Made by a program: the position numbers and the translations under genes. From positions 67,159 to 131,158 of the forward strand of contig MEVA01000016.1 of assembly GCA_001772625.1 (NCBI GenBank): a stretch of 64,000 nucleotides of DNA, given 5' to 3'. The notes beneath the pieces are model-generated. The model saw only the letters and a program-made list of their open reading frames with translations, made no database searches and was not told the DNA's origin. Shown here piece after piece: positions 1 to 25,303 of this stretch (position 1 is its first letter; each line of letters begins with the position of its first letter). This DNA is from a candidate division WWE3 bacterium RIFCSPHIGHO2_01_FULL_42_13 (GTDB lineage: Bacteria > Patescibacteriota > WWE3 > UBA101185 > UBA10185).

Positions 1-782
1 TTTGTATCTGCAATGCGCGAAACAACTGACTTGGAAAAATCCCCTAACCACGGGTTTTTAACCGGTGGGATAAAGAAATACCAAGGACGAGAGCTAAAGT
101 AAACGAAGTCTTCAAGGGGACGTGCGGTGTAACCAGACGTGCCTTTGGGAACAGAGCTATCTAAATAATTTAGTTTTACAAAAGGCCATAAAAACAAAAG
201 GCTTGAGGCAAGTGTAATAAACAAAACTACCACATAACTTTTTAGGTTTTTAAGGTCGAAAAGCGCAAAAAGCCCAAATAAAATTAAAAGAAAAAATCCA
301 ATGTAGTTAGAAATTAATATCGCCAGCAAAAGAGCCGCGGACAACGCGGCATAGGCTTTTGTGCTCCAACCAATCTCCTTGTATCTCAAAACTAGATGTA
401 TAAAAAGAGGGACTAACCAAATTTGCATAAGTTCCTCATGAACGCCTGTTTGAATCCAAATGTATGAAGAAAAAGAAAATATCAGAGCATATGTCAAACC
501 GAACTTATATCGTTTGAACAGCAAATGACTTAAGGCAACATTAGCCAGCATGGTTGCTAAAAGAAAAAGGTTAAAAAAGCTCGTTCCAAAGAAAAATGTA
601 AGAGTTGATAGGAAAAGCCAAAGTATCGGCTGATTTGTCGACAATGGGTGGGCCAGATGGAAAAAAACGTTTTGGTAGAAACCAGACCCAGCAAGATGTG
701 GTAACAAAGAAAATAAACCATCAGTTACTTGAGGCCAGATTAAAAGGGAAAGCTGATCTCCTAAGCCGCCAATAATAAGCAT
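1..782 (-). CDS. Partial CDS (N-terminal part; continues beyond the window start): hypothetical polytopic membrane protein
   Basis: A minus-strand ATG at 782..780 sits 22 nt downstream of the stop of the 125-aa ORF and has GGAG 9 nt upstream. Hand translation (MLIIGGLGDQLSLLIWPQVTDGLFSLLPHLAGSGFYQNVFFHLAHPL...) stays open to position 1 and is hydrophobic. It is absent from the ORF track because the stop lies outside the window. Confidence 0.3.
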   Translation of the reverse strand, partial: MLIIGGLGDQLSLLIWPQVTDGLFSLLPHLAGSGFYQNVFFHLAHPLSTNQPILWLFLSTLTFFFGTSFFNLFLLATMLANVALSHLLFKRYKFGLTYALIFSFSSYIWIQTGVHEELMQIWLVPLFIHLVLRYKEIGWSTKAYAALSAALLLAILISNYIGFFLLILFGLFALFDLKNLKSYVVVLFITLASSLLFLWPFVKLNYLDSSVPKGTSGYTARPLEDFVYFSSRPWYFFIPPVKNPWLGDFSKSVVSRIADT

Positions 783-803: not shown

Positions 804-1181
804 TTATTCCCTTTTAAATAAGAGAATTTTCGTTTCAACAACCAAACCAGCCAGTATGTATATAAACGCATAGTCCGCCGTTTTATCTGCTTGCAAAGTC
901 GCCCCAATGCCGGAAAGCAAAGCAGTTGCAATTAACAGAGCCGCGCTGAAGATATAAATAACTCTTGGCTCAAATTCCCTGATGTAGACGACAAAAAGAT
1001 AATAGAAAAGCAGAATAATATACACCAAACCGTTTTGACCTTTTAGGAGAAGGATGTCAGCTATTAATAGAATATAAAACGCGGCCTCAAAATATAACGC
1101 CCACTTTTTTATTTGCCCCCTTAAGTTCTTAAATGTATTCCACAACGCTGTCATTTTTTGTCGCTCCTTTTTCTTCTCCAC
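804..1181 (-). CDS. Small (125 aa) multi-TM membrane protein, hypothetical; possibly GtrA-like accessory protein
   Basis: Track ORF. About four hydrophobic segments. It sits immediately downstream of the 1229-aa GT-C-like gene, in the same position as the 114-aa TM ORF after the paralog. It overlaps the upstream gene by 31 nt. Confidence 0.4.
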   Translation of the reverse strand: MEKKKERQKMTALWNTFKNLRGQIKKWALYFEAAFYILLIADILLLKGQNGLVYIILLFYYLFVVYIREFEPRVIYIFSAALLIATALLSGIGATLQADKTADYAFIYILAGLVVETKILLFKRE

Positions 1182-4100
1182 ACTACTGCGGTGCTAACTA
1201 CTACAAAGACGCCTGCTGAAACTAAACTTCCAATATAAAACATGTTTTGAGGGAAAAATTCTATTGTCAACTCGTATGTATCTCCATATCCAGACGGATC
1301 AATGTACCACGCATTTCCAAAGTAATTGGCTTTGTAGTGATCTCCTCCAGCTATCTGTTGTAACCCAAACGTCTCAAAAATCCCTCCAGGGACGTCACCA
1401 AACTCCGTCACACTGCCGTCTAGATACGTACCTGCCAGATCCCCTCCAGCAAAACTTCCCCCCTTATATAACTTCCAACCGCTATCAAATGTTTGATTAA
1501 GAATTAGGTAGAAAGGTTGGTTCGAATTGGTTACCTGCACCTTGTACTTTGTCGGATTGACTCTGTAAAAACGAATATCGGGGGCACTACCCGAATAAGC
1601 CGGTTTCCCGCTTTCCAGCACTAAGTTGGGGGTGGCATTGGCAGTCAAAAGTAAACTCTCTAAGCCCATTTCTACGCCAGCCGCAACAGGACCATACGAA
1701 AATACATAAAAATGCAGACGTTTGGAATTAGGGGTGCTTTTGATCTGCGCGTTAAACTCGCTGAAACATTTTTCTACATCAAAATATACACAAAGCTCCG
1801 AATTCGATCCGACTAACAGATTCCCTTGGTTCCCAACACCAAGCTCATTAGGCCCCTTTAACCCATTTATGTATCTTAGAGTGTAGTTGCCATCAACTCC
1901 CTCTTCAAACACAGCAACCCCAAGAAATCCACTATCCGCGTTATATCTAAAAGAAAAGTCATATCCATCAAGACCTTGTGCGTCCTCCACCACAAACCGC
2001 TTAATATTATTGACTGGAAAAGTTCTAAGGGTGGGACGTAGATCAGGAACTTTAAGCAGTAAGTTATCTTCTTGAGTTAAGCTTATTTCCTCAACAGGAA
2101 TCTCATCCGTCAGGTTTTTCTTTTCATCTAGATCGAGGGAAACAAAGTATTCCCCGGTCTCAAAGTATTGATTCTTTTCAATCTTGTTCAGCGGGCCGCT
2201 ATATAAATTTGTGCCGTGGACGTTTCTTATTGTTAAAATCACGGAATCGCTTGGCTGATCTAACAAGGAATAATCGTTAAACACAAAACTCAACTGATAA
2301 TTACCAGGCCTCTCCACAACCACTTCATAACAAAAGTCCAGACAAGTAGTGTCCGTACGATTTGTATTAACCCTAACGTACCTATCATAAATCTCGTATA
2401 AGTAGTCGATTGTGCTTTGCGGAACACGATCAATCCTGCTTAACATAAACAGCGATCTTTGATGATACCCTAAAATTTTTCTTATAATATCTGGGGAATA
2501 CCAAAAGTCCGGGTTTTGGTTAAGTAGATCATCCTCAAGTCTGCTTACAATTTCCTCATGTCCAGCAACAAAGGCATCAAGTAAGTTGTTCGCGACATAG
2601 TCAGGTAGATATTCGTAACTTGACAACTCAACTGCCTTTTTAGATGTGTACCAAAGTAAGGTATCTAAGTAATCATCTGAGTCTTTAGCGTATTTTTTGA
2701 GGTCTGTCTTTTCCCTCAATCGAACTAAGGGATATGCTATGGAATTTGGCGCCACATTAGCCTCAGGCAATACCCACCCAGGTGACCAGTATAAATCACT
2801 TAACATTTTCTTCTCCTCATCATCAGTTTTGGGCGGGACAGTAATAACTATCTGTTCATTACTGCCTGTTTCATAATCCTCATCTCCGACAAAGACTTGC
2901 GTCTCCCCGTAATTGACGGCATTGATAGCGTACAAGGGTACCGCGCTAATACTTTTTATGTCTACAACACTAGTTGTTGCATATACGGCCGGGTAGAAGT
3001 TATCTTTATTAATCTTATACAAGTCCCACTCCCCAAAATTTCTCTCCTTCTCGATAGAAAAATGGCCGAGCGCGTCTTTTATAAAAGCGGGTGAATCTGT
3101 GTCACCAAAGAAATCATATCTAAAGTCATTTCTCTGTAGAATATAGCCTATGTTAAAAAACCCCGCGATCTTATTAAGATCATAATTACCTTTGTTATAA
3201 AGAATTTCGATCAGTCCTTGGTAAATACTAGCTGGATCATCGGTTAAGGTAAATCCTTCCCCATATGTATTAAATAAACTGCCCCTACTAGATACCAGGT
3301 TTAAAACATCTGAAGATCCCCCATAACCCCAGGAGTAGACATTAGCGTTCATGTCAGGCAAAACCATTACGTTAAAAAGATATTTTTGGGATTCTAAGAA
3401 TTTACCCGTATCAAATACATAGTCAGGAAACGTCTGGTGGTAGCCTAGGTCAAACTTTCCATGATATCCGATGTCTGAATCTCTACTCGGAAACATGGTA
3501 CCAAACACAAAAAGGTTATTAACCCAGATATAAATACTTGAAATAACTAAAAAAACCACCAAATAGTAAAAGGGTTGGTGTGCTTTCTTAATAAGTTTCT
3601 GCTTTTCAAACAAAATCCCCAAACCACGAGCAAAACCTATCCCTCCTAAAACAGCAAGTCCCAAAGTAGCAAAAATCCCGAATTTCTGCCAAGGCGCCCT
3701 ATGTACCCAAAAACCGGGAAGCTTGTTAAAAGCAAATTTGAAGATTTCCTCAAAAGGGGGGTGGGTTCCTTTAGAAAAGTACAACGATATAAGAGTTACG
3801 CCACCAATGGCCAGTAAGGTTTTCTTGTTTATGTGATCTTTAAATGCTAAGGATAAGACAAACGCCACAGGCAAAAGAAAACTCAATAACGTAAAAATAG
3901 AGTTCTGGTCAAGTTTAATAAACTCTGGAAAATAGGCAGCCCCACTCCATCCGTCATACCATATAATATCGCCAAGTTGTCTGAAAACATTCTTGAAACT
4001 GGTAAAGGTGCTCGTCCATGCCAGAAGGGACTCTACATTATATATCTCTTTCCCCGCTGCCGAATCAGTAAGCCCACTACTAAGCATAAGGTTACCAAGC

Positions 4101-4840
4101 GGCACCATCCAATAAAGCCCGCTCAAAACCGCGATTGTAGCTACCAGAAAAATCTTTTTTGTCTTGGACCAAATCACCCGAAAATCTCTTTTTACAATGT
4201 CAAACAAAAAATAATAAAAAACCAGGAATACTGACATTAAGAGCAATGCGTAAGCTATGGGCGGCTGTATTCCTAATGAGGAGCCAACAATAAATATCAA
4301 AGACATTAGAAATACATCAACTCTGCTTAACCTGTTTTTATCAAGAATTGTTATCATAATGCCAATGAATATGGGAAGAGCAAACATTATCGTCACAGCC
4401 ATCTGAAGACGGACCCATAAAAACATATTATAAAAATTAATCATGTAGATAAGAATTGCGAACAGTTTGGCGTAAAAACCCCATTTATCGTTTTTCTCGT
4501 CATCTAAAATTCTATTCATCAGAAAAAGCATCGAAAATCCCGTGAGCGCAAACCAGAAAATAAAAGTTAGTTTTTCTACAGTAATTAGGGAAATATCAAG
4601 CCTAGAAAATAAAAATGCCACAAGGACAAAAGGCAGCGAGCCCAAATTATTTGATCTGTCAACACCAAATTGTATTTCCGGGTACCAAGTAGATAAACGC
4701 TCCACCAATCTATCCTCAGGATATAGAGGAAAATCCACATCAGTTCCGGTTATAAGTTCTCCCTTAAACCATAGAAGGGGTACAAGTCCTAGCAGCAGTA
4801 CAAATAGAATTATTAAATTTTGCTTTCCTTGTTTTGCCAT
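1151..4840 (-). CDS. Giant (1229 aa) GT-C-superfamily-like membrane protein (AftD/YfhO-like architecture): N-terminal polytopic domain of about 450 aa, large extracytoplasmic domain, C-terminal TM anchor
   Basis: Track ORF. The N-terminal multi-TM region carries conserved blocks shared with the paralog (LWFKGELITGTDVDFP, LIYMINFYNMFLWVRLQ, FSKGTHPPF, NLPGFWVHRAPWQKFG). The long hydrophilic middle part contains DIGYHGKFDLGYH and HILQRNDFRYDFFGD. The C-terminus (FYIGSLVSAGVFVVVSTAVVWRRKRSDKK) is hydrophobic. I could not confirm the family by search. Confidence 0.55.
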   Translation of the reverse strand: MAKQGKQNLIILFVLLLGLVPLLWFKGELITGTDVDFPLYPEDRLVERLSTWYPEIQFGVDRSNNLGSLPFVLVAFLFSRLDISLITVEKLTFIFWFALTGFSMLFLMNRILDDEKNDKWGFYAKLFAILIYMINFYNMFLWVRLQMAVTIMFALPIFIGIMITILDKNRLSRVDVFLMSLIFIVGSSLGIQPPIAYALLLMSVFLVFYYFLFDIVKRDFRVIWSKTKKIFLVATIAVLSGLYWMVPLGNLMLSSGLTDSAAGKEIYNVESLLAWTSTFTSFKNVFRQLGDIIWYDGWSGAAYFPEFIKLDQNSIFTLLSFLLPVAFVLSLAFKDHINKKTLLAIGGVTLISLYFSKGTHPPFEEIFKFAFNKLPGFWVHRAPWQKFGIFATLGLAVLGGIGFARGLGILFEKQKLIKKAHQPFYYLVVFLVISSIYIWVNNLFVFGTMFPSRDSDIGYHGKFDLGYHQTFPDYVFDTGKFLESQKYLFNVMVLPDMNANVYSWGYGGSSDVLNLVSSRGSLFNTYGEGFTLTDDPASIYQGLIEILYNKGNYDLNKIAGFFNIGYILQRNDFRYDFFGDTDSPAFIKDALGHFSIEKERNFGEWDLYKINKDNFYPAVYATTSVVDIKSISAVPLYAINAVNYGETQVFVGDEDYETGSNEQIVITVPPKTDDEEKKMLSDLYWSPGWVLPEANVAPNSIAYPLVRLREKTDLKKYAKDSDDYLDTLLWYTSKKAVELSSYEYLPDYVANNLLDAFVAGHEEIVSRLEDDLLNQNPDFWYSPDIIRKILGYHQRSLFMLSRIDRVPQSTIDYLYEIYDRYVRVNTNRTDTTCLDFCYEVVVERPGNYQLSFVFNDYSLLDQPSDSVILTIRNVHGTNLYSGPLNKIEKNQYFETGEYFVSLDLDEKKNLTDEIPVEEISLTQEDNLLLKVPDLRPTLRTFPVNNIKRFVVEDAQGLDGYDFSFRYNADSGFLGVAVFEEGVDGNYTLRYINGLKGPNELGVGNQGNLLVGSNSELCVYFDVEKCFSEFNAQIKSTPNSKRLHFYVFSYGPVAAGVEMGLESLLLTANATPNLVLESGKPAYSGSAPDIRFYRVNPTKYKVQVTNSNQPFYLILNQTFDSGWKLYKGGSFAGGDLAGTYLDGSVTEFGDVPGGIFETFGLQQIAGGDHYKANYFGNAWYIDPSGYGDTYELTIEFFPQNMFYIGSLVSAGVFVVVSTAVVWRRKRSDKK

Positions 4841-5157
4841 AAAACTTTCAAGTATTGCATAATCAATCCAAGCAGTAGTAGTAAGAATACATAATCAGCA
4901 AGCACTAACGCCGAAGCATTTAGCTTCAGCAGTATAAGGACCGGAATAGCTGGGATTGCGATAATACTATCACGTAGGGCTTTAAAGTGACCCTGCTTGT
5001 ATGCCAACATATCCAGTATATAGAAAATTAGAACCGTAACATACAAAACGTCCATTTGCTTAGGAATAATAAACAAATGGGCAAGAAAAAGGGTAAGAAA
5101 TAAAACCCTAACAAAAAGGCTTGATTCTGCTAATCCGTTAAGTAAATTATTTCTCAT
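4813..5157 (-). CDS. Small (114 aa) multi-TM membrane protein, hypothetical
   Basis: Track ORF, hydrophobic. It sits between the two giant paralogs and has a 4-nt overlap with the upstream gene stop. Confidence 0.4.
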   Translation of the reverse strand: MRNNLLNGLAESSLFVRVLFLTLFLAHLFIIPKQMDVLYVTVLIFYILDMLAYKQGHFKALRDSIIAIPAIPVLILLKLNASALVLADYVFLLLLLGLIMQYLKVLWQNKESKI

Positions 5158-8100
5158 AAGCGCCTTTTTAAATATTCGAACACTGCTGTGGTGGAGATAG
5201 TTAGAAGGGTGATGGCAGTGACCACAGCAAAAATATAAAAGACTCTCTGAGAGGCAAATTCTATAATCAGAAAGTCAGCACCTTTAACATCCAGGGGATC
5301 TAAATACCAAGTGTTACTAAAAAAGTTTGATTTAAAATGTTTATCATTAGCGATCTCTTTCATTTTAAGCGTCTCGAAAGCACTTAAAATCCCCGTACTT
5401 CTTTCCCCTTCCCCGGCATAAAGCTTCCAGTGCGGACTGAAGGTTTGATTGAAAACCAGGGCAAATTTTCCGTCTCCATAGAAACGACCCAATTTGACTA
5501 GATATTTTGTGGGGGCAAGTTGTTTAAATACAACTTCTGGCAAACCCCCCGAAGGTTGCGGCATATTAAGTGATTTTAAAATAATGTTTGGGTTAAGTTG
5601 TCTTAACAGATTCATAGAAACAACGTCCACTTCTCCACCTCTAAAGGGATAGAGGTATATATCCAAAGATTCAACACCGTTTGACACCAAAACATCTGCC
5701 TCAAATATCTTTTCCTCCACGGTAGGTTCTAAAACACTTGATAACAAAACCCGCCCAGCACCATCTGTAGATTTCTGTACAAATAAGATGCCCATTCTGT
5801 CATTCGAGGTATATTTAAGCTCCGCCAGGTACTTACTTTGAAAATCAAGTGCATTATAAGAATACTTGATCATACTATTTAGATTCAAAGGACCTATCAG
5901 TTCCTCACTACGCTCAACTCCCACTCCCCTGGTAAACTCTTCGGGATTTACTACCTCGCGACTCTTGAGCGACACTGGCTCGTCCCGCATACCACTCAAG
6001 CTGAAAGTAACATTCCCAGAATCTAGATTATAGATATTTTTGGATGTCTCACTACCGCCATCAACATAAATATCGTACAAGTCTGACGGAAGTTCTCTTT
6101 GGTTAGATTCCACTATGAACATCTCGTATGAGCCAGGGATTTTAATATTAAAGTTGTAACAGTAATTTTTGCACCCTACTTCCTCCTGAATCTCTAAACT
6201 CTGAAATATCTCCAGTTGTTTGTTTAATTCACTTGTGATTTGCGGGGATAGGTCTAGTCCTTGGGTTTTTTCTAAAACCAACTTTATATTTTGAACGCCT
6301 AGAAAAGCGTACTTGGATACCTCCGAAGCATCTGCCCAGTTCGAAAACGCCTCACTATAATCTACAATTCCATTTAGATAATCCTTGTATAGCGTAGCTT
6401 TCTTACTGACTGGTAGATTATCGTACTTAAGTATCTCCGAGATTCTCTTAGAAGCAAGCCAAAGCTGTAATCCAGCCTTTGCAGCATTATCTCTCATTCC
6501 CAATAACTGCATTTTTTCCTTGAGTCTGACCAAATTATATAAAATGCTGTTGGGTTGAACATTAACCTCCGGTAGATAGGGCGTTTCTGCCAAGGTAGGT
6601 TCTCCCACAAACCCTCCAGGGGAAGAAAGATAAGTCTCACTGAAAGTCACAATGCCCCCCGCATCTTCAAGTAAAACAGTATTCGATCTGTCGTTTAAAA
6701 TTGCGGGTAGAAGAATGTTTTCCTTCATTGCAGTCACATCGACAAAATTATTTGCTGTGTATATAAACTGATTACTTCTCTCTTCACCAATACTATAAAA
6801 GTCCCATCGGCCAAAACTCGTTACAGGACCTAGCCCTAGTGTTGAGAGTTTTTCTTTAATAAACCCCGGTGAATCGTGATCACCGTAAAAATCGTATCTA
6901 AAATCATTTCTCTGCAGGATATGGTCTATGTTGTAGAAGTCAAAGACTTTTAACAGACCGTCGTGGTTGCCACTATATAGTGCCGAAACTATCGCACTGT
7001 AAATGTTGGTTATATACCCATCCAAAGCAAACCCCTCTCCATACGGAGAGTATAGTGTGGAACGGCCAAGAAACAGCCATGTTATATCTGTCGAGCTCCC
7101 ATACCCCCAGTCGTAAACACTTGTATGCTCTTCGGGAAGGAGAAGGATATTATAGTGCTCTTTGTTTAGCCCCTTTATATAATCTCGCGCCTCATACAAG
7201 TAGTCCGGGAAAGTGAGATGAAAGCCTAAATCAAATTTTCCATGATAACCAATATCCGACTCTTTGCCGGGAAACATAATACCAAACACAAAAAGATTAT
7301 TTAACAGTAGATAAAGCCCGATAAGCGTAGGTGCTATTATAAGTTTGGTAACTTTTAATTTTGCGTGTAAAAAGTTAACGGTGAAAAAAGTGCCAAAACC
7401 ACCTAAGACGGCATATGCCATTGTTGTAACTAAGCCAAACTTCTGCCATGGGGCCCTATGTATCCAAAAACCCGGCAAGTTATTAAAACTCCACTCAAAT
7501 ACACTATTAAACGGCGGGTGTGTTCCTTTTGAGAAGAATATAGTCATTAATGCAATAAGCCCAAAAGCAAGAATGGGCTTTTTATTCTCTTTGTTAACAT
7601 AAAGGGCCAGGAAGACTACAAGAAGAGCAAGAAAGCTTAAAATCAGAAACGCTGGGTTCTGATAAAAGTCTACGAACTCGGGGAAATAAAACTGGCCTCC
7701 CCAGCTGTCAAGCCAAACTACATCTCCAAACATTCTGAATATATTTAAATTGCTTGCCGTTTTGCTAGTCCACTCCAAAAGCTCTTTAACATTGTATGCT
7801 TCAACGCCAGCTTCACCACCTTGAATAAGACCAGACCTAAATATGTAATTTCCTAACGGAAAAATCCAATATGCTCCGCTGGCCGCAACCACAAAAGATA
7901 GGCAGACCAGTTTCTTTAGTTTGTGAAGGATAATCTTTTTATTTCTAAAAAGGTCAAACGACAAGTAAAACCCAATGTAAACACACATGCTCATCAGAAT
8001 CACATACATAACTGGGGGCTGCTTACCCAAGGGCCCACCAAGGATTGTCGCTACGGACAGAATCAAGAGATCTTTAGTTTTCAGGGAGTTTTTGTCAAGT

Positions 8101-8585
8101 ACCGAATGCAAAACCCCAAAAAGGACTGGGACGAACACAAGCGATGTTACAGAAACCTGTAGCCTAACCCACAAAAACATATTGTAAAAGTTCACCATGT
8201 AAATTAGAATCCCAAAGACTTTAATTAGAAATCTCTCCTTTTCTTCTCTCTCTGTAAAAACTTTTTCTAAAAGGTACGATATTGAAAATCCAGTTAAAGT
8301 AAACCAAATAACGAAAGTTAGTTTTTCTACCGTCACCACATCTTTAATAAACAGATTTAAAAGTCCTGAAGTTCCCACATAGGGAAGAGAGCTTATGTTT
8401 ATTGATCTTTCAGCGCCAGCTAGCTCTAAATCTTCCCACGCATAAAACCTCTCTTCAACACGTTCCCAAGGGAATGGGGGAAAGTTAACATCAGTTCCAG
8501 TAATTATCTGATTACCTCTAAACCACAGTAGGGGTATCAAACCCAAAATCAAAATGTATATTGTTATTGCGGCTTTATATTTCAT
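5154..8585 (-). CDS. Giant (1143 aa) GT-C-superfamily-like membrane protein, paralog of 1151..4840
   Basis: Track ORF. It is collinear with the 1229-aa protein: LWFRGNQIITGTDVNFP, LIYMVNFYNMFLWVRLQ, FSKGTHPPF, NLPGFWIHRAPWQKFG, DIGYHGKFDLGFH, HILQRNDFRYDFYGD, and a C-terminal TM (FAVVTAITLLTISTTAVFEYLKRRL). Nucleotide blocks encoding the conserved motifs are about 80% identical between the copies (e.g. around 3421-3500 versus 7201-7290). Confidence 0.55.
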   Translation of the reverse strand: MKYKAAITIYILILGLIPLLWFRGNQIITGTDVNFPPFPWERVEERFYAWEDLELAGAERSINISSLPYVGTSGLLNLFIKDVVTVEKLTFVIWFTLTGFSISYLLEKVFTEREEKERFLIKVFGILIYMVNFYNMFLWVRLQVSVTSLVFVPVLFGVLHSVLDKNSLKTKDLLILSVATILGGPLGKQPPVMYVILMSMCVYIGFYLSFDLFRNKKIILHKLKKLVCLSFVVAASGAYWIFPLGNYIFRSGLIQGGEAGVEAYNVKELLEWTSKTASNLNIFRMFGDVVWLDSWGGQFYFPEFVDFYQNPAFLILSFLALLVVFLALYVNKENKKPILAFGLIALMTIFFSKGTHPPFNSVFEWSFNNLPGFWIHRAPWQKFGLVTTMAYAVLGGFGTFFTVNFLHAKLKVTKLIIAPTLIGLYLLLNNLFVFGIMFPGKESDIGYHGKFDLGFHLTFPDYLYEARDYIKGLNKEHYNILLLPEEHTSVYDWGYGSSTDITWLFLGRSTLYSPYGEGFALDGYITNIYSAIVSALYSGNHDGLLKVFDFYNIDHILQRNDFRYDFYGDHDSPGFIKEKLSTLGLGPVTSFGRWDFYSIGEERSNQFIYTANNFVDVTAMKENILLPAILNDRSNTVLLEDAGGIVTFSETYLSSPGGFVGEPTLAETPYLPEVNVQPNSILYNLVRLKEKMQLLGMRDNAAKAGLQLWLASKRISEILKYDNLPVSKKATLYKDYLNGIVDYSEAFSNWADASEVSKYAFLGVQNIKLVLEKTQGLDLSPQITSELNKQLEIFQSLEIQEEVGCKNYCYNFNIKIPGSYEMFIVESNQRELPSDLYDIYVDGGSETSKNIYNLDSGNVTFSLSGMRDEPVSLKSREVVNPEEFTRGVGVERSEELIGPLNLNSMIKYSYNALDFQSKYLAELKYTSNDRMGILFVQKSTDGAGRVLLSSVLEPTVEEKIFEADVLVSNGVESLDIYLYPFRGGEVDVVSMNLLRQLNPNIILKSLNMPQPSGGLPEVVFKQLAPTKYLVKLGRFYGDGKFALVFNQTFSPHWKLYAGEGERSTGILSAFETLKMKEIANDKHFKSNFFSNTWYLDPLDVKGADFLIIEFASQRVFYIFAVVTAITLLTISTTAVFEYLKRRL

Positions 8586-9732
8586 TTATTATTTTTAATT
8601 CTTCCTCACCGACCAAACGCCAATCATACTGACGAGCAAAGTTCATACCTTTCTCTGAAAGAGTCTTGTGCAATTCCTTATCTTCAACAACCCTTATAAT
8701 CTCGTCTGCCATCCTTGTGTGGTCAAACAGCGGCACACGAATAATCATAGCTCCTAAATACGAAAACGCCGGGAGCTTGTAGGCAACTACGGGTGTGCCC
8801 AATGCCACGGCCTCAAGAACGGAAATCCCCCATCCCTCCTCGTGGCTTGCCGATATAAAAACCGCACTAGACTTAATTAATCTATATAAGTTTCTGGGCT
8901 GCAGCGGGCCTAACAGAATAATGTTATTGGTTAAGCCAACCTGCTTTATTTTACCTTTTAGCTGATTCGTAACCTCCACTGTACCACCCCCAGCAACAGC
9001 AACACACCAACTGGGGTGTTTTGCTACCACGCTAACCCAAATTTGAACAAGGTCAAAAATTCCTTTGGTTTCACGTAACCCTCCGGCAAAAGATGCCTCA
9101 AACCAATCTTTTTTAGGCACCGCAGCTTCAATCGCACTCATATTTATACCGTTTTTTACAAAATAATGCTTCCTAGGGCTTATTACACCAACAATACTCT
9201 GGCCCTCCGGCGTATCATAAACAAGCAGAGCATCTGAGAAGTAATGAACCACTCTAAAACCAACCCTTTGAAAAAGAAAGGATAGGAAATTAAATAAAAA
9301 GTTCCCGCTTCTTTTAAAAGGGCTCTTCGTTCTGTGATGGACCATGGAAACATATTTGGCGCCATAGATAATCTTGTAAAAAACCGCGGGGATCACGTCG
9401 CAAAAATAATCTGATGTTGAATAGACTACATCAGCACGAGGAAGTTTTCTAAAAACTACTAAATATAGTGAGTGTAAAGTAGAAATAAAATAAGAAACTA
9501 ACCTATCTAAATTTGAACTTTCTCTCTTCTTCCAAATGTGTGAAGCTACAACAAATTCTCCGTTAAACTTAAGCCCATTATTTCTATAGTTACCCAACCC
9601 CCCTAAGGTCGTCACGCAGTAGATTTTGCAACTTTTTCCTAAAATCCTCGCAGTCTCTATATGTCTGGCCGCGCCTCCACTTTGCACATCGCTTAAACCC
9701 GATCCATTATTTATATACAGAATGTTTTTCAT
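8575..9732 (-). CDS. Glycosyltransferase family 4 (GT-B fold)
   Basis: Track ORF 385 aa. The C-terminal EGWGISVLEAVALGTPVV motif is typical of GT4/GT1 retaining glycosyltransferases. Confidence 0.8.
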   Translation of the reverse strand: MKNILYINNGSGLSDVQSGGAARHIETARILGKSCKIYCVTTLGGLGNYRNNGLKFNGEFVVASHIWKKRESSNLDRLVSYFISTLHSLYLVVFRKLPRADVVYSTSDYFCDVIPAVFYKIIYGAKYVSMVHHRTKSPFKRSGNFLFNFLSFLFQRVGFRVVHYFSDALLVYDTPEGQSIVGVISPRKHYFVKNGINMSAIEAAVPKKDWFEASFAGGLRETKGIFDLVQIWVSVVAKHPSWCVAVAGGGTVEVTNQLKGKIKQVGLTNNIILLGPLQPRNLYRLIKSSAVFISASHEEGWGISVLEAVALGTPVVAYKLPAFSYLGAMIIRVPLFDHTRMADEIIRVVEDKELHKTLSEKGMNFARQYDWRLVGEEELKIINEI

Positions 9733-15608: not shown

Positions 15609-16633
15609 TCCTTTCTGCTTAATTCAGCGTTATTAAAAACCGAAACTAATGTCCCCAAGCTGTATTCCCACAACGTAACAAGACAAGCCAGAGGATGAAA
15701 AAACCACGCCGAATCTTTTTTTTTCATGTACCCCCGAATGGTTTGTATCACAAGCGGAAAAAAAGTCAGGCAGTAAAATACAAAAATTACAACTGCCTTA
15801 AAACTTCTGGATGACACATCAACTAAACGCCACTCATATTCCCTATTATCAACATTACGATGAAATAAGTAATCTCTAACTCTTCTTCTTTGCTTCCTCG
15901 CAAACTTTCCAATATCACGCTCACAGTAAGTGTGTATGATTCCATTCTTTACTTTAATAAATACTGCCGCACCACTTTTTTTTATATAAGAAGCCAAAAT
16001 ATCTATATCAAACAAGTAACTCCCTCTTAGATTTTCCTTCAAAAATTGTGTTCTAAAAACGGTACCGTTAGCACCAATTGTGGGAAGGTTCGTGGAGTTA
16101 AACTTTACTAGCAAATAACTTCCTTTATCTTGTTCGTCTCTTGCGACTTCCGTCCACTTTCCCGTAAGAAGGTTTACACGATCATAATTACCTAAAAAAT
16201 GAACAAACGGGTCATTCATTCCAATCAAAGCACAGTATCTTGTTATAAAACCATCTTTCTTTCTCCAAGTATATTTCCAGGGTTCACTACCTACAGCCGC
16301 GGGCTCTTTCATAAGTGGCCCAACCATTTCCTGCAACCAGGTATTGGTGGGCAAGATGTTATCGGAATCAACAAGGGCGATTAATTCCCCACCTGCCGCC
16401 CCCACACCTACGGCTTTGCCTGCTTCAGCTGTTTTTAGATCGTTTTTTACTATTTTTGCCCCAAATTTTGCTGCAATTGCTAAAGTGTCGTCGATAGAGC
16501 CCCCATCGGCAACAATTATCTCAACTTTCTCTTTTGGATAGTCTTGGGAATCAATTGACTCTAAACAAAACCGCAATACACTTGCGGCGTTAAGTGTAGG
16601 CACAACTATTGAAACTTTAGGTAAATTAATCAC
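15596..16633 (-). CDS. Glycosyltransferase family 2
   Basis: 345 aa. VSIVVPTLNAASVL...VEIIVADGGSIDDT. GTG start. Confidence 0.75.
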   Translation of the reverse strand: MINLPKVSIVVPTLNAASVLRFCLESIDSQDYPKEKVEIIVADGGSIDDTLAIAAKFGAKIVKNDLKTAEAGKAVGVGAAGGELIALVDSDNILPTNTWLQEMVGPLMKEPAAVGSEPWKYTWRKKDGFITRYCALIGMNDPFVHFLGNYDRVNLLTGKWTEVARDEQDKGSYLLVKFNSTNLPTIGANGTVFRTQFLKENLRGSYLFDIDILASYIKKSGAAVFIKVKNGIIHTYCERDIGKFARKQRRRVRDYLFHRNVDNREYEWRLVDVSSRSFKAVVIFVFYCLTFFPLVIQTIRGYMKKKDSAWFFHPLACLVTLWEYSLGTLVSVFNNAELSRKEWKQ

Positions 16634-16692
16634 GTTATTATTCTATCTTTTAGGCAGAGGGAAGGCTAGGAAGATATACCTAAATCTTGTTA

Positions 16693-16721
16693 AGCATGTT
16701 ACATTCTAGCCTGTTCTGGCA
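16693..16721 (-). promoter_or_regulatory. Weak sigma70-like promoter candidate for the minus-strand operon starting at 16633 (-10 TAGAAT, -35 TTTAAA, 17-nt spacer)
   Basis: The reverse complement of 16693..16698 is TAGAAT. The -35 is weak (TTTAAA). Confidence 0.25.
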
Positions 16722-16745
16722 GTAATTTAAACAAGTTAAAGAAGT

Positions 16746-16774
16746 TTGACTAAAAAGACAATGGCCTGTAGAAT
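16746..16774 (+). promoter_or_regulatory. Sigma70-like promoter: -35 TTGACT (16746..16751), 17-nt spacer, -10 TAGAAT (16769..16774)
   Basis: Read directly. It lies about 65 nt upstream of the GTG start at 16839, which is preceded by AAAGGAGAGG. Confidence 0.45.
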
Positions 16775-16838
16775 TCGATGGCTTATAGTAGTTTCGGCCT
16801 AATTTGCACGCAAACTAAACAAATCAAAAGGAGAGGTT

Positions 16839-17549
16839 GTGAGCGAAATTCTGGAGTTACCGGGCAGTAGTCTTATTGCCCGGCAGTTTAAAGAAATGCT
16901 GGAAAAGATCGTTTTGCCTACAATCGGGCGGAATAGCTTATCCAGCATTTGGGCGGAGCTGTACCAGCATGGAACCCATCCCCTCATATACCAAGTGGGT
17001 GGGAACTGGGAAGTTTGGGGGAACAAGGACAACAATGGGAATTCCCAGCTCCTGGCCCACATGATCCTCGTAGCTTCGGGCTGCGCAGTCGTCTCTAAAG
17101 AGATGGGGATTGATGCTAGGGATGTTACCCTCGCGGGGATGGTTCACGACGGTCATAAGAGGATGGATATCGAGGTTGGATCTGATGAAGGTCACACCGC
17201 CTCTTATAAGCGTCTGATCGATCTCTTTGGTGCACAAGTAGCCCAGATTGCTGAATATAGCGGCCACACCAGCATGCATAATGTGGTTGCCGAACTAGCC
17301 ATGCCTGGGCGGGATTGGGGAAAACTTCTCTTCTTCCTGATCGACGGTATTGCTGTGCACGATGGCTTCCAACCAGTCTCAGCCAAATGCGACTATCTGG
17401 ACTCGGTCGCCGCGGAAGGCAAAAAATACCAGTACAACTCGGATGGAATTAAAGAGTGGGGCCACCCGTTCTTTACATTCCAACGCTACTTGTCTGAAAC
17501 CATTCAGGCAATGGTTGCCCACAAGCTTGGGGTTTTTACTGCCGACTAA
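16839..17549 (+). CDS. Hypothetical protein with HD-domain-like metal-binding motifs (possible phosphohydrolase); compositionally foreign
   Basis: 236 aa. GTG start with strong SD (GGAGAGG). Spacing pattern H...HD...H...D (LLAHMIL, MVHDGHKR, HTSMH, AVHDG). GC is about 50% versus about 39% in flanking genes, and CTG/GCC-rich codon usage is unlike the neighbours. Confidence 0.45.
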   Translation: MSEILELPGSSLIARQFKEMLEKIVLPTIGRNSLSSIWAELYQHGTHPLIYQVGGNWEVWGNKDNNGNSQLLAHMILVASGCAVVSKEMGIDARDVTLAGMVHDGHKRMDIEVGSDEGHTASYKRLIDLFGAQVAQIAEYSGHTSMHNVVAELAMPGRDWGKLLFFLIDGIAVHDGFQPVSAKCDYLDSVAAEGKKYQYNSDGIKEWGHPFFTFQRYLSETIQAMVAHKLGVFTAD

Positions 17550-17615
17550 TCTTGCAAACTATATCGACATTCTGCTGGTAGAAGAGCTTGCAAAATAATA
17601 TCAGTACGGTTTACA

Positions 17616-17650
17616 AAAATGGGATCACCTAGTGATCCCATTTTCTTTTC
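17616..17650. terminator. Bidirectional rho-independent terminator: perfect 13-bp stem (AAAATGGGATCAC/GTGATCCCATTTT), 3-nt loop, T-tract
   Basis: Stem 17616..17628 and 17632..17644, loop CTA, followed by TTTTCTTTTCC. It lies between convergent genes 16839..17549 (+) and 17678..19915 (-). Confidence 0.6.
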
Positions 17651-17677
17651 CACTAACATTGCAGTGTAAGAAAAGTC

Positions 17678-19915
17678 CTATGCAGAAATCTCCATCTCAC
17701 CAAACATACGTTTGAAAATATTATCCCAGGTCATGTTATGCGAGAAGTTGTAAACGTTTTGCTCAATCTTTTTTCTTTCCTCACCGTCTCCCAGCAACTC
17801 GCTAACATTCATAACAAAAGAGTCTACATTGTATTCGACAACCCTACCTAAGTTTTGTTTCTTAATATCTTCCGATAATGGAATCACCGAAGTAGTAATT
17901 ATGGGCAATCCGCAGGACATATAATCTTTTGGCTTCGTGACATCTGAAAATCTCTTGTAGGTAGTTTTTGTATCCTCGTACGTAGCTAAACCAAGAGTGC
18001 TTTCTTTCAATAAACTAAGCCACCTCTCCCTATCCTCGGTGGTATCAATAAAGCCCATGAAATCAACGTTTTTGCTAACCCCAAGCTTATCGGCCATACT
18101 CTCCAGCTTCCCTTTAAGCTCCCCATCCCCGATTATTCTTAGCCTCAAGTCTGGAAACTTTTTTAAAAGCGCGGGCATTGATTCAATAATTAATTCCAAT
18201 CCAAACTCGGGCGTTAGTCCCCCGCTGTAAACTAAAATGTTATCTTTTCTTTCAATTTTCACCTCTCCTGCCTGCTTAACAACCCCTATAGGCACAGTGA
18301 TTTGATGCTTTTCTTTGGCCTTTTCACCAAGTTCCTGAATTCTTTGTCTGGCCATTCTATCCGAAACATTCAACGTGTAATCACTACCGAAAAAGGCTGC
18401 TCTGTCCATCCACACATAAACTTTGTTTAGAAGTCCTACCTTAAATCTATTTTCCATAACATAGTCGATAGTAAAGAAAGCAACTTTGCGAACCTTACCC
18501 AACTTCTTGAGTAGCAAGCCAAAGATAGCGTTAAACGAGTCTACCCCAATGTATAAATCAAACTTTTCTTTTGATGTTAAGAAATACCAAATGTTATAAA
18601 AGGCGTCCCTGAAGTAAAACAAGAACTCATTCCTAGGCAGTACCGGAGATTTCTTTTCTTTAACAAGCTTGCCCCTCTTAAATATGTTGAGATAAGAAAT
18701 AGCCTCACCTTTTGTGTAGAAAAATTTATGCGCAACGTAATAAAGCGTATCAATACCCTTTTTATTTAAGAAGTCACGAAGCTCCTGACCACTTCCCTTA
18801 AAGTGTTCATGCGTTACCACAGCAATTTTTTGACCTAAGATACTGTTCATTTTCTTGCTTTTTGTTTCCATCTCCCATCTGTCGCAAATTTCTTCGATTA
18901 TCTCATTTATACCATACGTGTACTTCCAATCCGGATAGTGCTTCTTAAATTTAGAGACATCCGATACATACCAGATATGATCGCCGGACCTGTTTTCATC
19001 CGAATATGAAATGTTACCTTTTTTGCCCAAATAAGTTTCTATTTTTTCAATAGCCTCCATCATTGAAACGTTTGAGTGCCTAGAGCCTCCAACGTTATAA
19101 ACCTCGCCCGGCCTAGGATTTTTATAAAACTCATGAAACATAGTTATTAGATCGTACGAGTGAATGTTGTCTCTCACCTGCTTACCCTTATAACCATAAA
19201 TGGTGTAGGGCCTGCCTTCGGCAATACATTTGGCTAAATAGGCCAAAAACCCATGTAATTCGGCACCGGAATGGCCCGGACCTGTTAAACATCCTCCCCT
19301 AAATACACCTGTTCTTAAGCCAAAATACTTACCGTATTCCTGCACCATCACATCAGCCGCTACTTTAGACACACCAAAAATACTATGCTTTGAGTCATCA
19401 AGGGACATCGTCTCATCAATACCTTCTTTATACTGATGGCTTGGATCAATCTCATAACGCTTGTCTAGTTCTATTAACGGGAGAAGGTTTGGTCTGTCAC
19501 CATAGACTTTATTTGTTGAAGTAAAAATAAAAACCGCTTCCGGAGAATATTTTCTGTATGCCTCAAGAATATTTAACGTGCCGGTAGCGTTTACGGAAAA
19601 GTCTGTTAGAGGTTCTCTGGCAGCCCAATCGTGAGATGGTTGCGCTGCTGTGTGGATGATTAAATCGAATACGTGGTTAGAAAAAATCTCATCAATTGCT
19701 TTTTCGTCCCGTATATCCACATCATAATGCTTGTAGTTTTTGTGTTTTTCTTCAAGCAACGCACGGCTCCAAGCTGTACTTGCTTCATCGCCAAAAAAAT
19801 ATCTTCTCATGTCGTTGTCTATTCCAACAACATCAAAACCCCGCTCCAAGAAATATCTTGAGGCTTCAGAGCCTATTAGACCTGCTGATCCGGTTATTAA
19901 TACGATTTTTGCCAT
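17678..19915 (-). CDS. Bifunctional fusion: N-terminal extended-SDR nucleotide-sugar epimerase/dehydratase-like domain + C-terminal GT4 glycosyltransferase domain
   Basis: 745 aa, a single ORF. N-terminus has GSAGLIGSE Rossmann, STNKVYGD, and FGVSK in place of the canonical YxxxK. C-terminal about 390 aa has GT-B features ([16 protein letters not shown]..., [12 protein letters not shown]). Confidence 0.7.
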
Positions 19916-22217: not shown

Positions 22218-23939
22218 TTACAATTTAATCTCAGCCTTAGCTTTAACTTCCGCTTCGGCACTTTCCTTAATATTTTGAGCAGCAATTTCGTCTTCCTTCT
22301 TTGGCAAAATGTGGGTGAACAAACTTTTCACAGCACTCACCCAAAACTTTGGGGACATGTAGTTAACTTTTGTTTGTGAAACGTCGAAATCTAACAAATG
22401 CCCAACGATCTTCCAAGCCGAATAAACCAAAAACTTTGCGTCGTCGTAGTTTCTAACACTTAGAAGTTTTCTGAGCATGTATTGAGGCGTAAAGAATGAA
22501 GAGTATAGTTCCTGGGTCAGCTCCATTAACTTCTCGCGTTCAAATGGAATTTTCATAACCGGCCCCCTCATATCAAAAGCGTTGTAATCGTCATCTGCAA
22601 CCATAAGCCAATCATTTTCTAGACATTCCTTGTACAGAGGCGTTCCGGGGTAAGGAATAACAATTGTTGCCTGCATGGTATCTACATAGCCTTTTTTAAA
22701 GAGCCTTTTGGCGATTGCGATGGTGTTTTTAGCCATTTCTTCTGTTTCCCAAGGATATCCAAGCATAATGGTTAAATGAGGCTCTAGACCCGCCTTTTTG
22801 GCCATTTTTACCCCCTCTTCTATCTGGTGGACCTTAATGCCTTTATCAAGTTTATCCAGTGTTTCCTGGTTTCCGGACTCCATTCCATACAAAATAAATC
22901 TAAAGTTGGCTTTACCCATAAGATCGTAATATTCCTGGGTTAAAGCATTAAGCCTCATGTTACAACCCATCACCACTTTTTTGTTGTACCCTGAGTCAAT
23001 TAAAAGCTGGCAGAATTTTTTCAAAGGGGGGCCAATAAACAAAGTTCCAGCGTCGTCGAAAATTTCTTTTACTCCGTAGTTATCTACAACGTGTTTTACT
23101 TCAGCAAAAAGTCTTTCGGGTGAAAATCTTCTGTAAGTTCCAATTGGGTTTATAGTGTGATCCCAAACACAAAATGTGCATCTGTTCCACCAGCAATCTT
23201 TTCCTGAATACATGTAAGTGGCCGGGGTATATTTGTAGTTTCCGTTGGCGTAAGCGTAAAGTTTCCATTTGGTTAAGTCTCTGTCTACAAATGGAAGTTC
23301 GTCCAAATTGTGTTTTTGCACTAGTGGGCCGGAAACCCAAAAAGCGTCTTTTTCGCCGGTTAAAATGTTATCTTCATATTTTATAAAATCTCCAAGCTTA
23401 ACTCTTTTATCTCCCGCTCTTCCCCAAATTCCACCCACCAGTTGCTCACCTTTGGTAATTGAATCGGCAAGTTCGGTAAGCATAAAATCGTAATCTCCTC
23501 CGGTCATTGCGTAATCAAGAGGAGAATTCATCATGCTTTCTTTTGGCGCAAAAGTTATTTGGTCTCCAACCCAAACCAAAAGCATTTCAGGAAATTTTTC
23601 CTTAAGATCTTTAATTACCTTCCAGTGGTACTTAACAACCGGGGACTTTGTTTCCACCATTAACATGTCGGGCTTTTCTTTTCTTAGCTGCTCGATCCAC
23701 TCATCGTAAGTCCACTCTTCCGCGATCCCATCAAGCCAAACAACATCGTAACCTTTAGCCTGAGCTTGAGATGCGGCATAAGCCGGAACCATTGGGTAAA
23801 TGTAAGTTTTGGCGTTAAAAAATTGAAACTGTCTGTTTTGAGATAAAAGAGGAACCCCCTTATTTGTCTGCATTGGGGGATACCCTACGGCAATTTTAAA
23901 TTTCTTTGTTTTAGTTTCTGTTTGTGCTTTTTTGGGCAT
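22218..23939 (-). CDS. B12-binding-domain radical SAM protein (class B rSAM, probable methyltransferase or other radical modifier)
   Basis: 573 aa. N-terminal Rossmann-like B12-binding-type region. A cysteine triad DCWWNRCTFC (CX4CX2C) sits in a MiaB/Elp3-like core. The C-terminal extension resembles the DUF4070 tail of class B rSAMs. Confidence 0.55.
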   Translation of the reverse strand: MPKKAQTETKTKKFKIAVGYPPMQTNKGVPLLSQNRQFQFFNAKTYIYPMVPAYAASQAQAKGYDVVWLDGIAEEWTYDEWIEQLRKEKPDMLMVETKSPVVKYHWKVIKDLKEKFPEMLLVWVGDQITFAPKESMMNSPLDYAMTGGDYDFMLTELADSITKGEQLVGGIWGRAGDKRVKLGDFIKYEDNILTGEKDAFWVSGPLVQKHNLDELPFVDRDLTKWKLYAYANGNYKYTPATYMYSGKDCWWNRCTFCVWDHTINPIGTYRRFSPERLFAEVKHVVDNYGVKEIFDDAGTLFIGPPLKKFCQLLIDSGYNKKVVMGCNMRLNALTQEYYDLMGKANFRFILYGMESGNQETLDKLDKGIKVHQIEEGVKMAKKAGLEPHLTIMLGYPWETEEMAKNTIAIAKRLFKKGYVDTMQATIVIPYPGTPLYKECLENDWLMVADDDYNAFDMRGPVMKIPFEREKLMELTQELYSSFFTPQYMLRKLLSVRNYDDAKFLVYSAWKIVGHLLDFDVSQTKVNYMSPKFWVSAVKSLFTHILPKKEDEIAAQNIKESAEAEVKAKAEIKL

Positions 23940-25291: not shown

Positions 25292-25303
25292 TGGAAAATT
25301 CTA

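Follow-up and report, generated by a model that had tools for sequence, protein, structure and literature searches.

The stretch of DNA analysed here (the window) comprises 64,000 nucleotides (nt) of contig MEVA01000016.1 from the candidate division WWE3 bacterium RIFCSPHIGHO2_01_FULL_42_13. Close to its start two neighbouring genes code for large membrane proteins, which we call big1 and big2, and each is followed by a gene for a small membrane protein (small1 and small2). Sequence profiles and a predicted fold support the assignment of big1 and big2 to the AftD-type GT-C glycosyltransferase superfamily. Taken as a whole, the system is probably best explained as a pair of anciently diverged AftD-type GT-C paralogs that add sugars outside the membrane and are served by a small subunit. 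With their distinct architecture, the big proteins form a distant branch of an already known type of enzyme and not a new enzyme class; the conserved orphan small partner is the most interesting, and the less expected, part of the system.

The relationship to AftD emerges at the level of profiles. By itself, big1 matches the Pfam model PF11847 (GT-C_AftD, formerly DUF3367) with 10.2 bits (E=0.17), the gathering score being 26 bits, and the Pfam scan shows no match of this model to big2. Among 33 close relatives, PF11847 is the far commonest family match, found individually in 19 of them at E<=0.01 (best E=4.7e-12), and four of eight broader relatives pass its gathering score. A hidden Markov model (HMM) of the family retrieves a protein with the full AftD architecture of PF11847 plus an F5/8 type C domain (P0040 of our protein collection, E=1e-20), as well as one that carries the Joint Genome Institute (JGI) name 'arabinofuranan 3-O-arabinosyltransferase' (P0043, E=3e-15). 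With hhalign, the family aligns with P0040 over 534 columns at 98.7% probability (E=2.7e-16), and P0040 in turn matches the AftD of M. abscessus (Protein Data Bank (PDB) entry 6W98) at E=1e-50. Hence, there is a significant profile-level relationship to the AftD of Mycobacteriales, with a structure-based identity between big2 and AftD of about 9%.

The preliminary description had likened the two proteins to AftD/YfhO-type enzymes and pointed to the Pfam GT-C families as the place to look. The AftD half of this comparison stands, by way of the family profile and the fold rather than of direct Pfam matches, and the YfhO half falls: neither big protein has a YfhO (PF09586), PMT_2 or DUF2079 match at E<=1, which removes them from these families, and at E<=0.01 YfhO is likewise absent from the matches of the 33 relatives. 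We accordingly hold it to be highly unlikely that big1 and big2 fall into a different GT-C lineage (of the YfhO/PF09586, DUF6541 or DUF2079 type) and resemble AftD through shared GT-C ancestry only. YfhO-type proteins do have a similar layout, in which a polytopic N-terminal domain is followed by a large domain outside the membrane and by a transmembrane (TM) segment at the C-terminus, and weak DUF6541 matches occur in two of the 33 relatives (best E=7.8e-4). However, the same library does pick up PMT_2 and DUF2079 in genes nearby, PF11847 dominates among the relatives, and AftD is the top structural match, with no YfhO-type entry among the Foldseek matches listed.

The predicted fold adds to the profile evidence. 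We obtained an AlphaFold2 model of big2 from a 38-sequence alignment (predicted local distance difference test (pLDDT) 87.5, predicted template modelling score (pTM) 0.81). A Foldseek search of the PDB with this model returns three AftD structures at the top (6W98, 6WBX and 6WBY, E=2.2e-12 to 9e-11), 6W98 being the best, with alignments that span the whole protein. The next matches are to the STT3 proteins of yeast and dog (8age_A, E=1.8e-5; 6ftg_5, E=1.2e-4), followed by AftA (8if8_C, E=1.6e-3). STT3/PglB/AglB and AftA/Emb resemble the big proteins in their GT-C membrane core and in having a soluble domain behind its last TM; compared with AftD, STT3 and AftA match far more weakly and only in part (TM-score of 0.26-0.28 on the query), and no sequence-level link accompanies these matches. 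The fold thus sides with the earlier proposal of a GT-C enzyme rather than a transporter. That the N-terminal domain might be a transporter or permease, with an outside domain that serves for binding or catalysis and has nothing to do with glycosyl transfer, has next to no probability: a profile search of the PDB gives one very weak peptide transporter match (7q0l, E=7.6), which is not significant, and no transporter is found among the Foldseek matches at E<=0.001. With full-length matches confined to GT-C enzymes, Foldseek effectively refutes this alternative.

Hydropathy and the model agree on the architecture that had been proposed for both proteins, namely an N-terminal polytopic domain (433-445 residues), an extracytoplasmic region (about 680-750 residues) and one C-terminal TM. 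The topology of big2 was derived from the AlphaFold2 helices, hydropathy and charge, with the weakly hydrophobic helix 61-79 taken as a juxtamembrane element of the first extracytoplasmic loop (EL1). It would comprise TM1-11, followed by 677 residues outside the membrane, a further TM and a basic tail in the cytoplasm (the tails KRRL and RRKRSDKK being placed inside), with EL1 at residues 22-82, EL4 at 251-310 (between TM7 and TM8) and EL5 at 353-378 (between TM9 and TM10) exposed on the outside. Up to TM12 this arrangement, including the naming of the loops, corresponds to the published one of AftD. Behind the soluble GT-C domain lies a helical bundle that matches DUF5667 below threshold (E=4e-4 in big2); one relative passes the DUF5667 threshold and another has matches to both DUF5667 and CBM_4_9, each below threshold. 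The C-terminal part of the big2 model matches beta-sandwiches of the CBM4 and Cry-toxin type.

The comparison with AftD brings out both a shared frame and clear departures from it. In the published structure, AftD has 11 TMs, an outside domain, TM12 and then a four-helix bundle (TM13-16), which binds the acyl carrier protein and is essential; its homologues were reported there only within Actinobacteria. The big proteins share with it the GT-C fold, the 11 TMs, the outside domain with beta-sandwich modules resembling carbohydrate-binding modules (CBMs), and the single-TM re-entry. Unlike AftD, they lack the F5/8 type C domain (no PF00754 or PF22633 match in the Pfam scan), in place of which they have the DUF5667-like bundle and beta-sandwiches, and they end after the single C-terminal TM without TM13-16. 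Exactly one C-terminal TM is predicted by hydropathy in 160 of 173 collected family proteins, and four to five occur only in the AftD-like P0040 and P0043. Some members of unusual build were also observed: two proteins of about 1960 residues with some 19 predicted TMs look double-length or fused (locus L010, 3779-9661; L030, 4278-10166), and two others, P0081 (1932 residues) and P0098 (1705 residues), have 13 TMs after a soluble domain. At two further loci (L014, 905-2956; L015, 903-2969), a gene for a 683-688-residue F5/8 type C protein lies directly upstream of the AftD-like gene and overlaps it; in mycobacterial AftD the F5/8 type C domain is fused into the enzyme.

We counted residue conservation over 162 family sequences and mapped the conserved positions onto AftD in two steps, from the family to P0040 and from there to 6W98, with a register in the loops that is uncertain by 1-2 residues. 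The PDB sequence numbering equals native AftD numbering plus 3, which is consistent at all five residues published as essential in AftD (K39, D41, E251, K361 and D474). The most strongly conserved positions of the family (big2/big1 numbering) are D32/D34 in EL1 (95%), R377/R381 in EL5 (99%), and W493/W504 (100%) and D561/D572 (99%) in the soluble domain. To these may be added P460 of big2 in the soluble domain (100%), the EL4 residues N281, R284 and G287 (N-x-x-R-x-x-G, 85-94%) and the EL5 residues G354, H356 and P358 (G-x-H, 83-99%). The likeness to AftD extends to a T-(K/D)-x-D motif in EL1, an arginine in EL4, a basic residue in EL5, a WG followed by an acid, and an RND in the soluble domain. 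Specifically, T38-K39-L40-D41 of AftD aligns with T31-D32-V33-N34 of big2 (T-D-V-D in big1), R267 with R284, K361 with R377, W-G...D474-E475 with W493-G494...T499-D500 (the D500 column being D in 70 of 162), and R-N-D with R-N-D561, the last of these also being visible in the profile search of the PDB. As aligned, the AftD active-site framework is shared largely, not wholly, by the big family.

These residues also bear on a reading in which the big proteins would act like an oligosaccharyltransferase (OST) or ligase, transferring oligosaccharides en bloc from undecaprenyl-pyrophosphate to a protein or wall polymer instead of adding single sugars from a polyprenyl-monophosphate donor; the oligosaccharides would be pre-assembled by the phosphoglycosyl transferase and GT2/GT4 enzymes of the surrounding gene island and flipped by Wzx. 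STT3 being the next-best GT-C fold match would fit it, as would the makeup of the island, which encodes an initiator (Bac_transf) and a pair of Wzx-type flippases and in which no Wzy_C-type ligase was detected within the window. The 'DWGYG' about 60 residues past the last N-terminal TM might be added, since it loosely recalls the OST motif WWDYG. Yet the AftD match is far better (E=2e-12) and runs across the whole protein, the sequence-profile links lead to AftD-type proteins only, and the CBM-like modules make a glycan a likelier acceptor than a peptide. Moreover, the family has x-W-G-Y-G where OSTs have WWDxG, with a variable residue (D/N/K) before W493. We therefore judge an OST-like activity to be improbable. 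The element itself, D/S-W-G-Y-G-G, spans residues 492-497 of big2 (7095-7112, minus strand) and 503-508 of big1; its resemblance to WWDYG in sequence and position is loose and may be coincidental.

As for the small partner, four hydrophobic helices are present in small1 as well as in small2. The two are weakly alike (22% identity over 45 residues, E=0.001) and resolve into one family, with members of 109-132 residues, once relatives are added; the AlphaFold2 model of small1 is a four-helix protein (pLDDT 82). Two residues, A89 and Y95 in small1 numbering, are invariant and lie in 'ADKTADYAF' at the outer end of helix 4, and the majority motif G-(I/V)-E-V-W-A-E-R-T-A-x-Y-x-(F/Y)-Q-x-L-x-L-G occupies the loop between helices 3 and 4 and the start of helix 4. 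The basic N- and C-termini predict an N-in orientation, which would place the conserved motif outside. In all of the ten instances that we examined (two in the window, the others in L001, L002, L005, L012, L013, L014, L015 and L016), the small gene directly adjoins the 3' end of an AftD-like big gene or overlaps with it; for three of these loci (L014-L016) the small protein was the starting point, and the genes upstream of it proved to be big-family members. Judged by its sequence conservation and its genomic placement, the small protein is an orphan family tied to AftD-like genes and not a generic TM peptide.

No known family accounts for it in the searches made. The 21 members of the small family have no Pfam match at E<=1, GtrA included, the family profile finds no PDB match at E<=10, and Foldseek with the small-protein model gives a best PDB E-value of 3 with AftD not listed. 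GtrA and ArnE/F-type proteins, such as Rv3789 beside AftA, are comparable in having about 110-130 residues and four TMs and in adjoining a GT-C gene in a glycan cluster, whereas the G-x-E-V-W-A-E-R-T-A-x-Y motif is specific to the small family. An identification with GtrA (PF04138) was rejected, as there is no Pfam match and hhalign gives probabilities of 0.4% and 0.07% against two GtrA domains. A split AftD in which the small gene would encode TM13-16 likewise finds no support: hhalign against the C-termini of P0040 and P0043 yields a probability of at most 0.2%, so that no similarity is detectable, and none of the 171 collected proteins of non-AftD architecture has a fused multi-TM C-terminus. 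The parallel to AftD in the succession of 11 TMs, an outside domain, one TM and four helices is suggestive and remains an analogy. The outward-facing motif argues against a role in binding acyl carrier protein. It is possible, if doubtful, that the small protein is an obligatory second subunit and a separately encoded counterpart of AftD TM13-16, either diverged from it or independently recruited, whose motif would take part in donor handling or gating.

We next consider the origin of the pair. As described earlier, big1 and big2 are neighbouring minus-strand paralogs, and pairwise alignment shows them to be collinear over about 1220 residues with 34% identity (E=0). A codon alignment gives 50% nucleotide identity overall and 77-85% in the motif blocks, for which a figure of about 80% had been given. 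Third-codon positions within these blocks are just 44-55% identical, and the block identity therefore reflects amino-acid constraint; the same figure rules out a recent duplication or gene conversion as its cause. Across the two genes, 67% of 4-fold degenerate sites differ, which is near saturation. Neighbour-joining analysis of the N-terminal domain places big1 together with P0002, and big2 with P0007, P0036, P0009, P0010 and P0012, all from other genomes. Since each paralog is closer to relatives elsewhere in the tree, the duplication would predate those lineages. The saturated synonymous sites and the closer relatives of each paralog in other genomes together indicate that the duplication is old, and the constrained motifs fit the picture drawn in the preliminary description. 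More than one copy per locus is common in the family: tandem arrays of two or three copies are also found at L007, L011, L013 and L027, and L001 and L015 have two copies a few kb apart. The three-gene array of L013 (contig CAZXEC010000001.1), which includes a small partner and is typical of the candidate phyla radiation (CPR), comes from a metagenome-assembled genome (MAG) labelled 'uncultured Gammaproteobacteria', a label that may be wrong.

The features of the locus are collected in Table 1, in window positions; the four open reading frames (ORFs) of the two modules were read from the ORF listing. The gene for the GT4 glycosyltransferase overlaps big2 by 11 nt, big2/small2 and big1/small1 overlap by 4 nt each (ATGA start/stop), and the 3' end of small2 overlaps the start of big1 by 28 nt. 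Because the overlaps are this tight at all junctions, GT4-big2-small2-big1-small1 looks like one operon. Both small ORFs exist as had been noted, with lengths then given as 114-125 residues, of which the upper figure needs amending. For small1, the ORF finder starts at a GTG at 1181 (804-1181, 125 residues); the ATG at 1152-1154, giving 116 residues, is the most likely start because it overlaps the stop of big1 (ATGA), is preceded by an AAGGAG at a distance of 11 nt and agrees with the public gene call. In our protein collection big1 appears as P0001, which derives from Logan assemblies only, and its three neighbours match NCBI records exactly (A2886_00840, _00850 and _00855, of the WWE3 bacterium named above). 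The product expected for big1, A2886_00845, was not seen; the public record may lack its annotation or carry a flag on it. Scans of the window for tRNAs and Rfam families found nothing.

Table 1. Features of the two modules and of selected neighbouring genes, in window positions.
Feature	Position	Strand	Description	Evidence
big2 (A2886_00855)	5154-8585	-	1143 aa, predicted AftD-like GT-C glycosyltransferase	ORF, AlphaFold2, Foldseek
big2 TM GT-C domain	7287-8585	-	aa 1-433	
big2 soluble GT-C alpha/beta domain	6621-7286	-	aa 434-655	
big2 DUF5667-like helical bundle	6189-6542	-	aa 682-799; five helices	AlphaFold2
big2 beta-sandwich region	5256-6164	-	aa 808-1110	
big2 C-terminal TM	5160-5255	-		
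big2 D32 codon	8490-8492	-	EL1 'GTDVN'; candidate catalytic or metal-binding acid	D in 154/162
big2 R377 codon	7455-7457	-	EL5 'FWIHRAPWQKF'	R in 161/162
big2 soluble-domain motifs	6903-7109	-	W493-G494-Y495...D500 'DWGYGSSTD'; R-N-D561 'ILQRNDFRYDF'	
small2 (A2886_00850)	4813-5157	-	114 aa, 4-helix membrane protein	hmmsearch with small-family HMM, E=4.5e-22
big1	1151-4840	-	1229 aa, big2 paralog	ORF, alignment, PF11847 E=0.17
big1 TM GT-C domain	3506-4840	-		
big1 extracytoplasmic region	1253-3505	-		
big1 C-terminal TM	1175-1252	-		
big1 D34 codon	4739-4741	-	equivalent of big2 D32	
big1 R381 codon	3698-3700	-	equivalent of big2 R377	
big1 W504 codon	3329-3331	-	equivalent of big2 W493	
big1 D572 codon	3125-3127	-	equivalent of big2 D561	
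small1 (A2886_00840)	804-1154	-	116 aa, 4-helix membrane protein	hmmsearch with small-family HMM, E=1.5e-25
GT4 glycosyltransferase	8575-9732	-	directly upstream of big2	Pfam Glycos_transf_1, E=3e-22
5' part of next operon gene	3-782	-	runs off the window; polytopic membrane protein	no Pfam family
GT2 fused to GtrA/DPMS TM domain	47652-48773	-	predicted DPMS-like polyprenyl-phosphate sugar synthase	

The two modules are embedded in a larger genomic context, with nearly all of the window from 1 to about 48,800 constituting one minus-strand glycan island of about 48 kb. It encodes GT4 and GT2 transferases, epimerases/dehydratases, a UDP-glucose dehydrogenase, six class-I methyltransferases, a B12-binding radical SAM enzyme, two Wzx-type flippases and a Bac_transf phosphoglycosyl transferase. 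At least six GT-C-type enzymes are present in the window, and besides big1 and big2 the island has three PMT_2 GT-C proteins, one DUF2079 protein and one LPG_synthase_TM protein. Enzymes of the GT2-GtrA/DPMS type make polyprenyl-phosphate sugars, and the fusion protein at the far end of the island is a plausible donor source for six island GT-C proteins. The order of methyltransferases, GT4, big, small and membrane proteins of about 500 residues recurs in L001 and L002, where GT4 again lies directly upstream of the big gene. These ~500-residue proteins have no Pfam match; the truncated gene at the edge of the window is an orthologue of the first of them in L001 and L002, with 39-41% identity (E=1e-45 and 4e-68).

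Several other features of such islands were noted. A polytopic orphan family of about 470-515 residues follows big and small, often as two tandem copies (L001, 13948-17003; L002, 9095-11993; L016, 2018-5010); it has no Pfam match and could be another membrane glycan enzyme. The B12-binding radical SAM gene (22218-23939, minus strand, in the window) recurs at L003 (6339-7979) and L016 (5658-7148), and this enzyme together with the many methyltransferases suggests heavily methylated, possibly C-methylated, sugars. A plus-strand ORF of 236 residues with no Pfam match (16839-17549) is flanked by a GT2 gene and an epimerase-GT4 fusion gene, in the only island stretch with a raised guanine-plus-cytosine content (0.43 at 16001-18000). 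Three minus-strand proteins without a family are encoded at 24008-26278 and 28468-29997, with lengths of 427 residues (one N-terminal TM), 324 residues and 509 residues (about eight TMs).

These contexts permit a mechanism to be proposed for the AftD-type reading. The 11 N-terminal TMs would carry the lipid-donor site and the conserved outward loops EL1, EL4 and EL5, while the soluble alpha/beta domain, with its WGY...D and RND motifs, would close the active site from the outside; the helical bundle and the CBM-like beta-sandwich modules follow, ahead of the single C-terminal TM anchor. On the outer side of the membrane, the enzyme might then take a sugar from a polyprenyl-phosphate-linked donor, for which the DPMS-like GT2-GtrA fusion is a plausible source, and attach it to a glycan of the cell surface that is still being extended and that the C-terminal modules hold. 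The phosphoglycosyl transferase, the GT2/GT4 enzymes and the methyltransferases of the island could build this acceptor, and the Wzx flippases could export it. The two paralogs probably differ in the residues that they add or in the acceptor positions at which they act, given that the conserved catalytic-region residues are all kept while the C-terminal modules are strongly divergent. The small protein is most likely a dedicated membrane subunit of its own enzyme; it could stabilise or regulate that enzyme, as TM13-16 do in AftD, or handle the lipid-linked donor. The chemistry cannot be assigned from sequence alone.

Several observations weigh against this picture. Neither big1 nor big2 has a match above threshold in Pfam or NCBIfam (the NCBIfam scan is likewise empty above threshold for all four proteins), and a phmmer search of the PDB with big1 returns noise alone (a spurious match to green fluorescent protein, E=0.6). 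At the residue level, the conserved EL1 aspartate aligns with K39 of AftD and not with D41, whose equivalent is N34 in big2 and D36 in big1; residue-level equivalence in EL1 is therefore uncertain by 1-2 positions. The equivalent of the essential E251 falls on a column that is not conserved in the big family. The host is a CPR bacterium (WWE3) without arabinogalactan; no genes of the decaprenylphosphoryl-arabinose (DPA) pathway were seen in the window, with no arabinose-donor genes of the UbiA/DprE type among its annotated ORFs. We infer donor, acceptor and product entirely, and the role of the small protein from gene adjacency alone. The small gene is present at about eight of 20 independent big-gene ends, so that about 60% of related big genes are without it.

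The residue differences lead to the further question of whether one or both paralogs might be non-catalytic, having lost activity after the duplication to serve as a GT-C-derived scaffold or as a glycan-binding or chain-length factor. Sub- or neo-functionalisation is frequent in old duplicates, and both the N34 of big2 facing D36 of big1 at the second EL1 position and the lack of conservation at the E251 equivalent could be taken in its favour. However, N, D and G alternate at this EL1 position across the family, and N34 is hence a normal family state; further, the 33 columns conserved at 85% or more across the 162 sequences, among them D32/D34, R377/R381, W493/W504 and D561/D572, are all retained in big1 as well as in big2. 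A loss of catalysis is thus very hard to credit beside the reading of two active AftD-type enzymes.

The preliminary description had regarded the big proteins as candidates for an undescribed family. An exhaustive profile search recovers 13,353 cluster representatives at E<=1e-3 and 4,555 at E<=1e-30, with more than 150 full-length matches below 1e-150; a word-indexed homology search, with its 34-40 matches, grossly underestimates the size of the family. One Patescibacteria relative already bears the NCBI name 'alpha-(1->3)-arabinofuranosyltransferase family protein'. In view of these numbers, of the broader relatives past the PF11847 threshold and of this name, 'undescribed' overstates the case for a family that is large and partly named by Pfam and NCBI. 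The claim holds in another sense, in that the papers listed by our literature search include no experimental characterisation of a member of the clade and none that connects AftD with CPR/Patescibacteria: the family is uncharacterised yet already recognised. Loci recovered from GTDB and metagenomes, which were scanned with one narrow peptide pattern, carry the labels Saccharibacteria, Roizmanbacteria, Berkelbacteria, Daviesbacteria, Patescibacteria, Omnitrophota and the one 'Gammaproteobacteria' MAG.

CPR/Patescibacteria are ultrasmall episymbionts, and to our knowledge their surface chemistry is essentially unknown. In this CPR bacterium, about 48 kb of the window are devoted to glycan synthesis. 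As remote relatives of AftD, big1 and big2, which are among the largest genes, acquire a testable mechanism, with a polyprenyl-phosphate donor, the EL1 aspartate, the EL5 arginine and CBM-like acceptor modules as its elements. The AftD lineage thereby extends well beyond Actinobacteria, and the linked orphan 4-TM protein becomes a candidate accessory subunit for GT-C enzymes that could help explain why AftD needs its extra helical bundle. If the small protein should indeed prove to be the separately encoded counterpart of that bundle, these genes would represent a new split architecture of AftD-type enzymes, widespread in CPR, that builds a methylated surface glycan.

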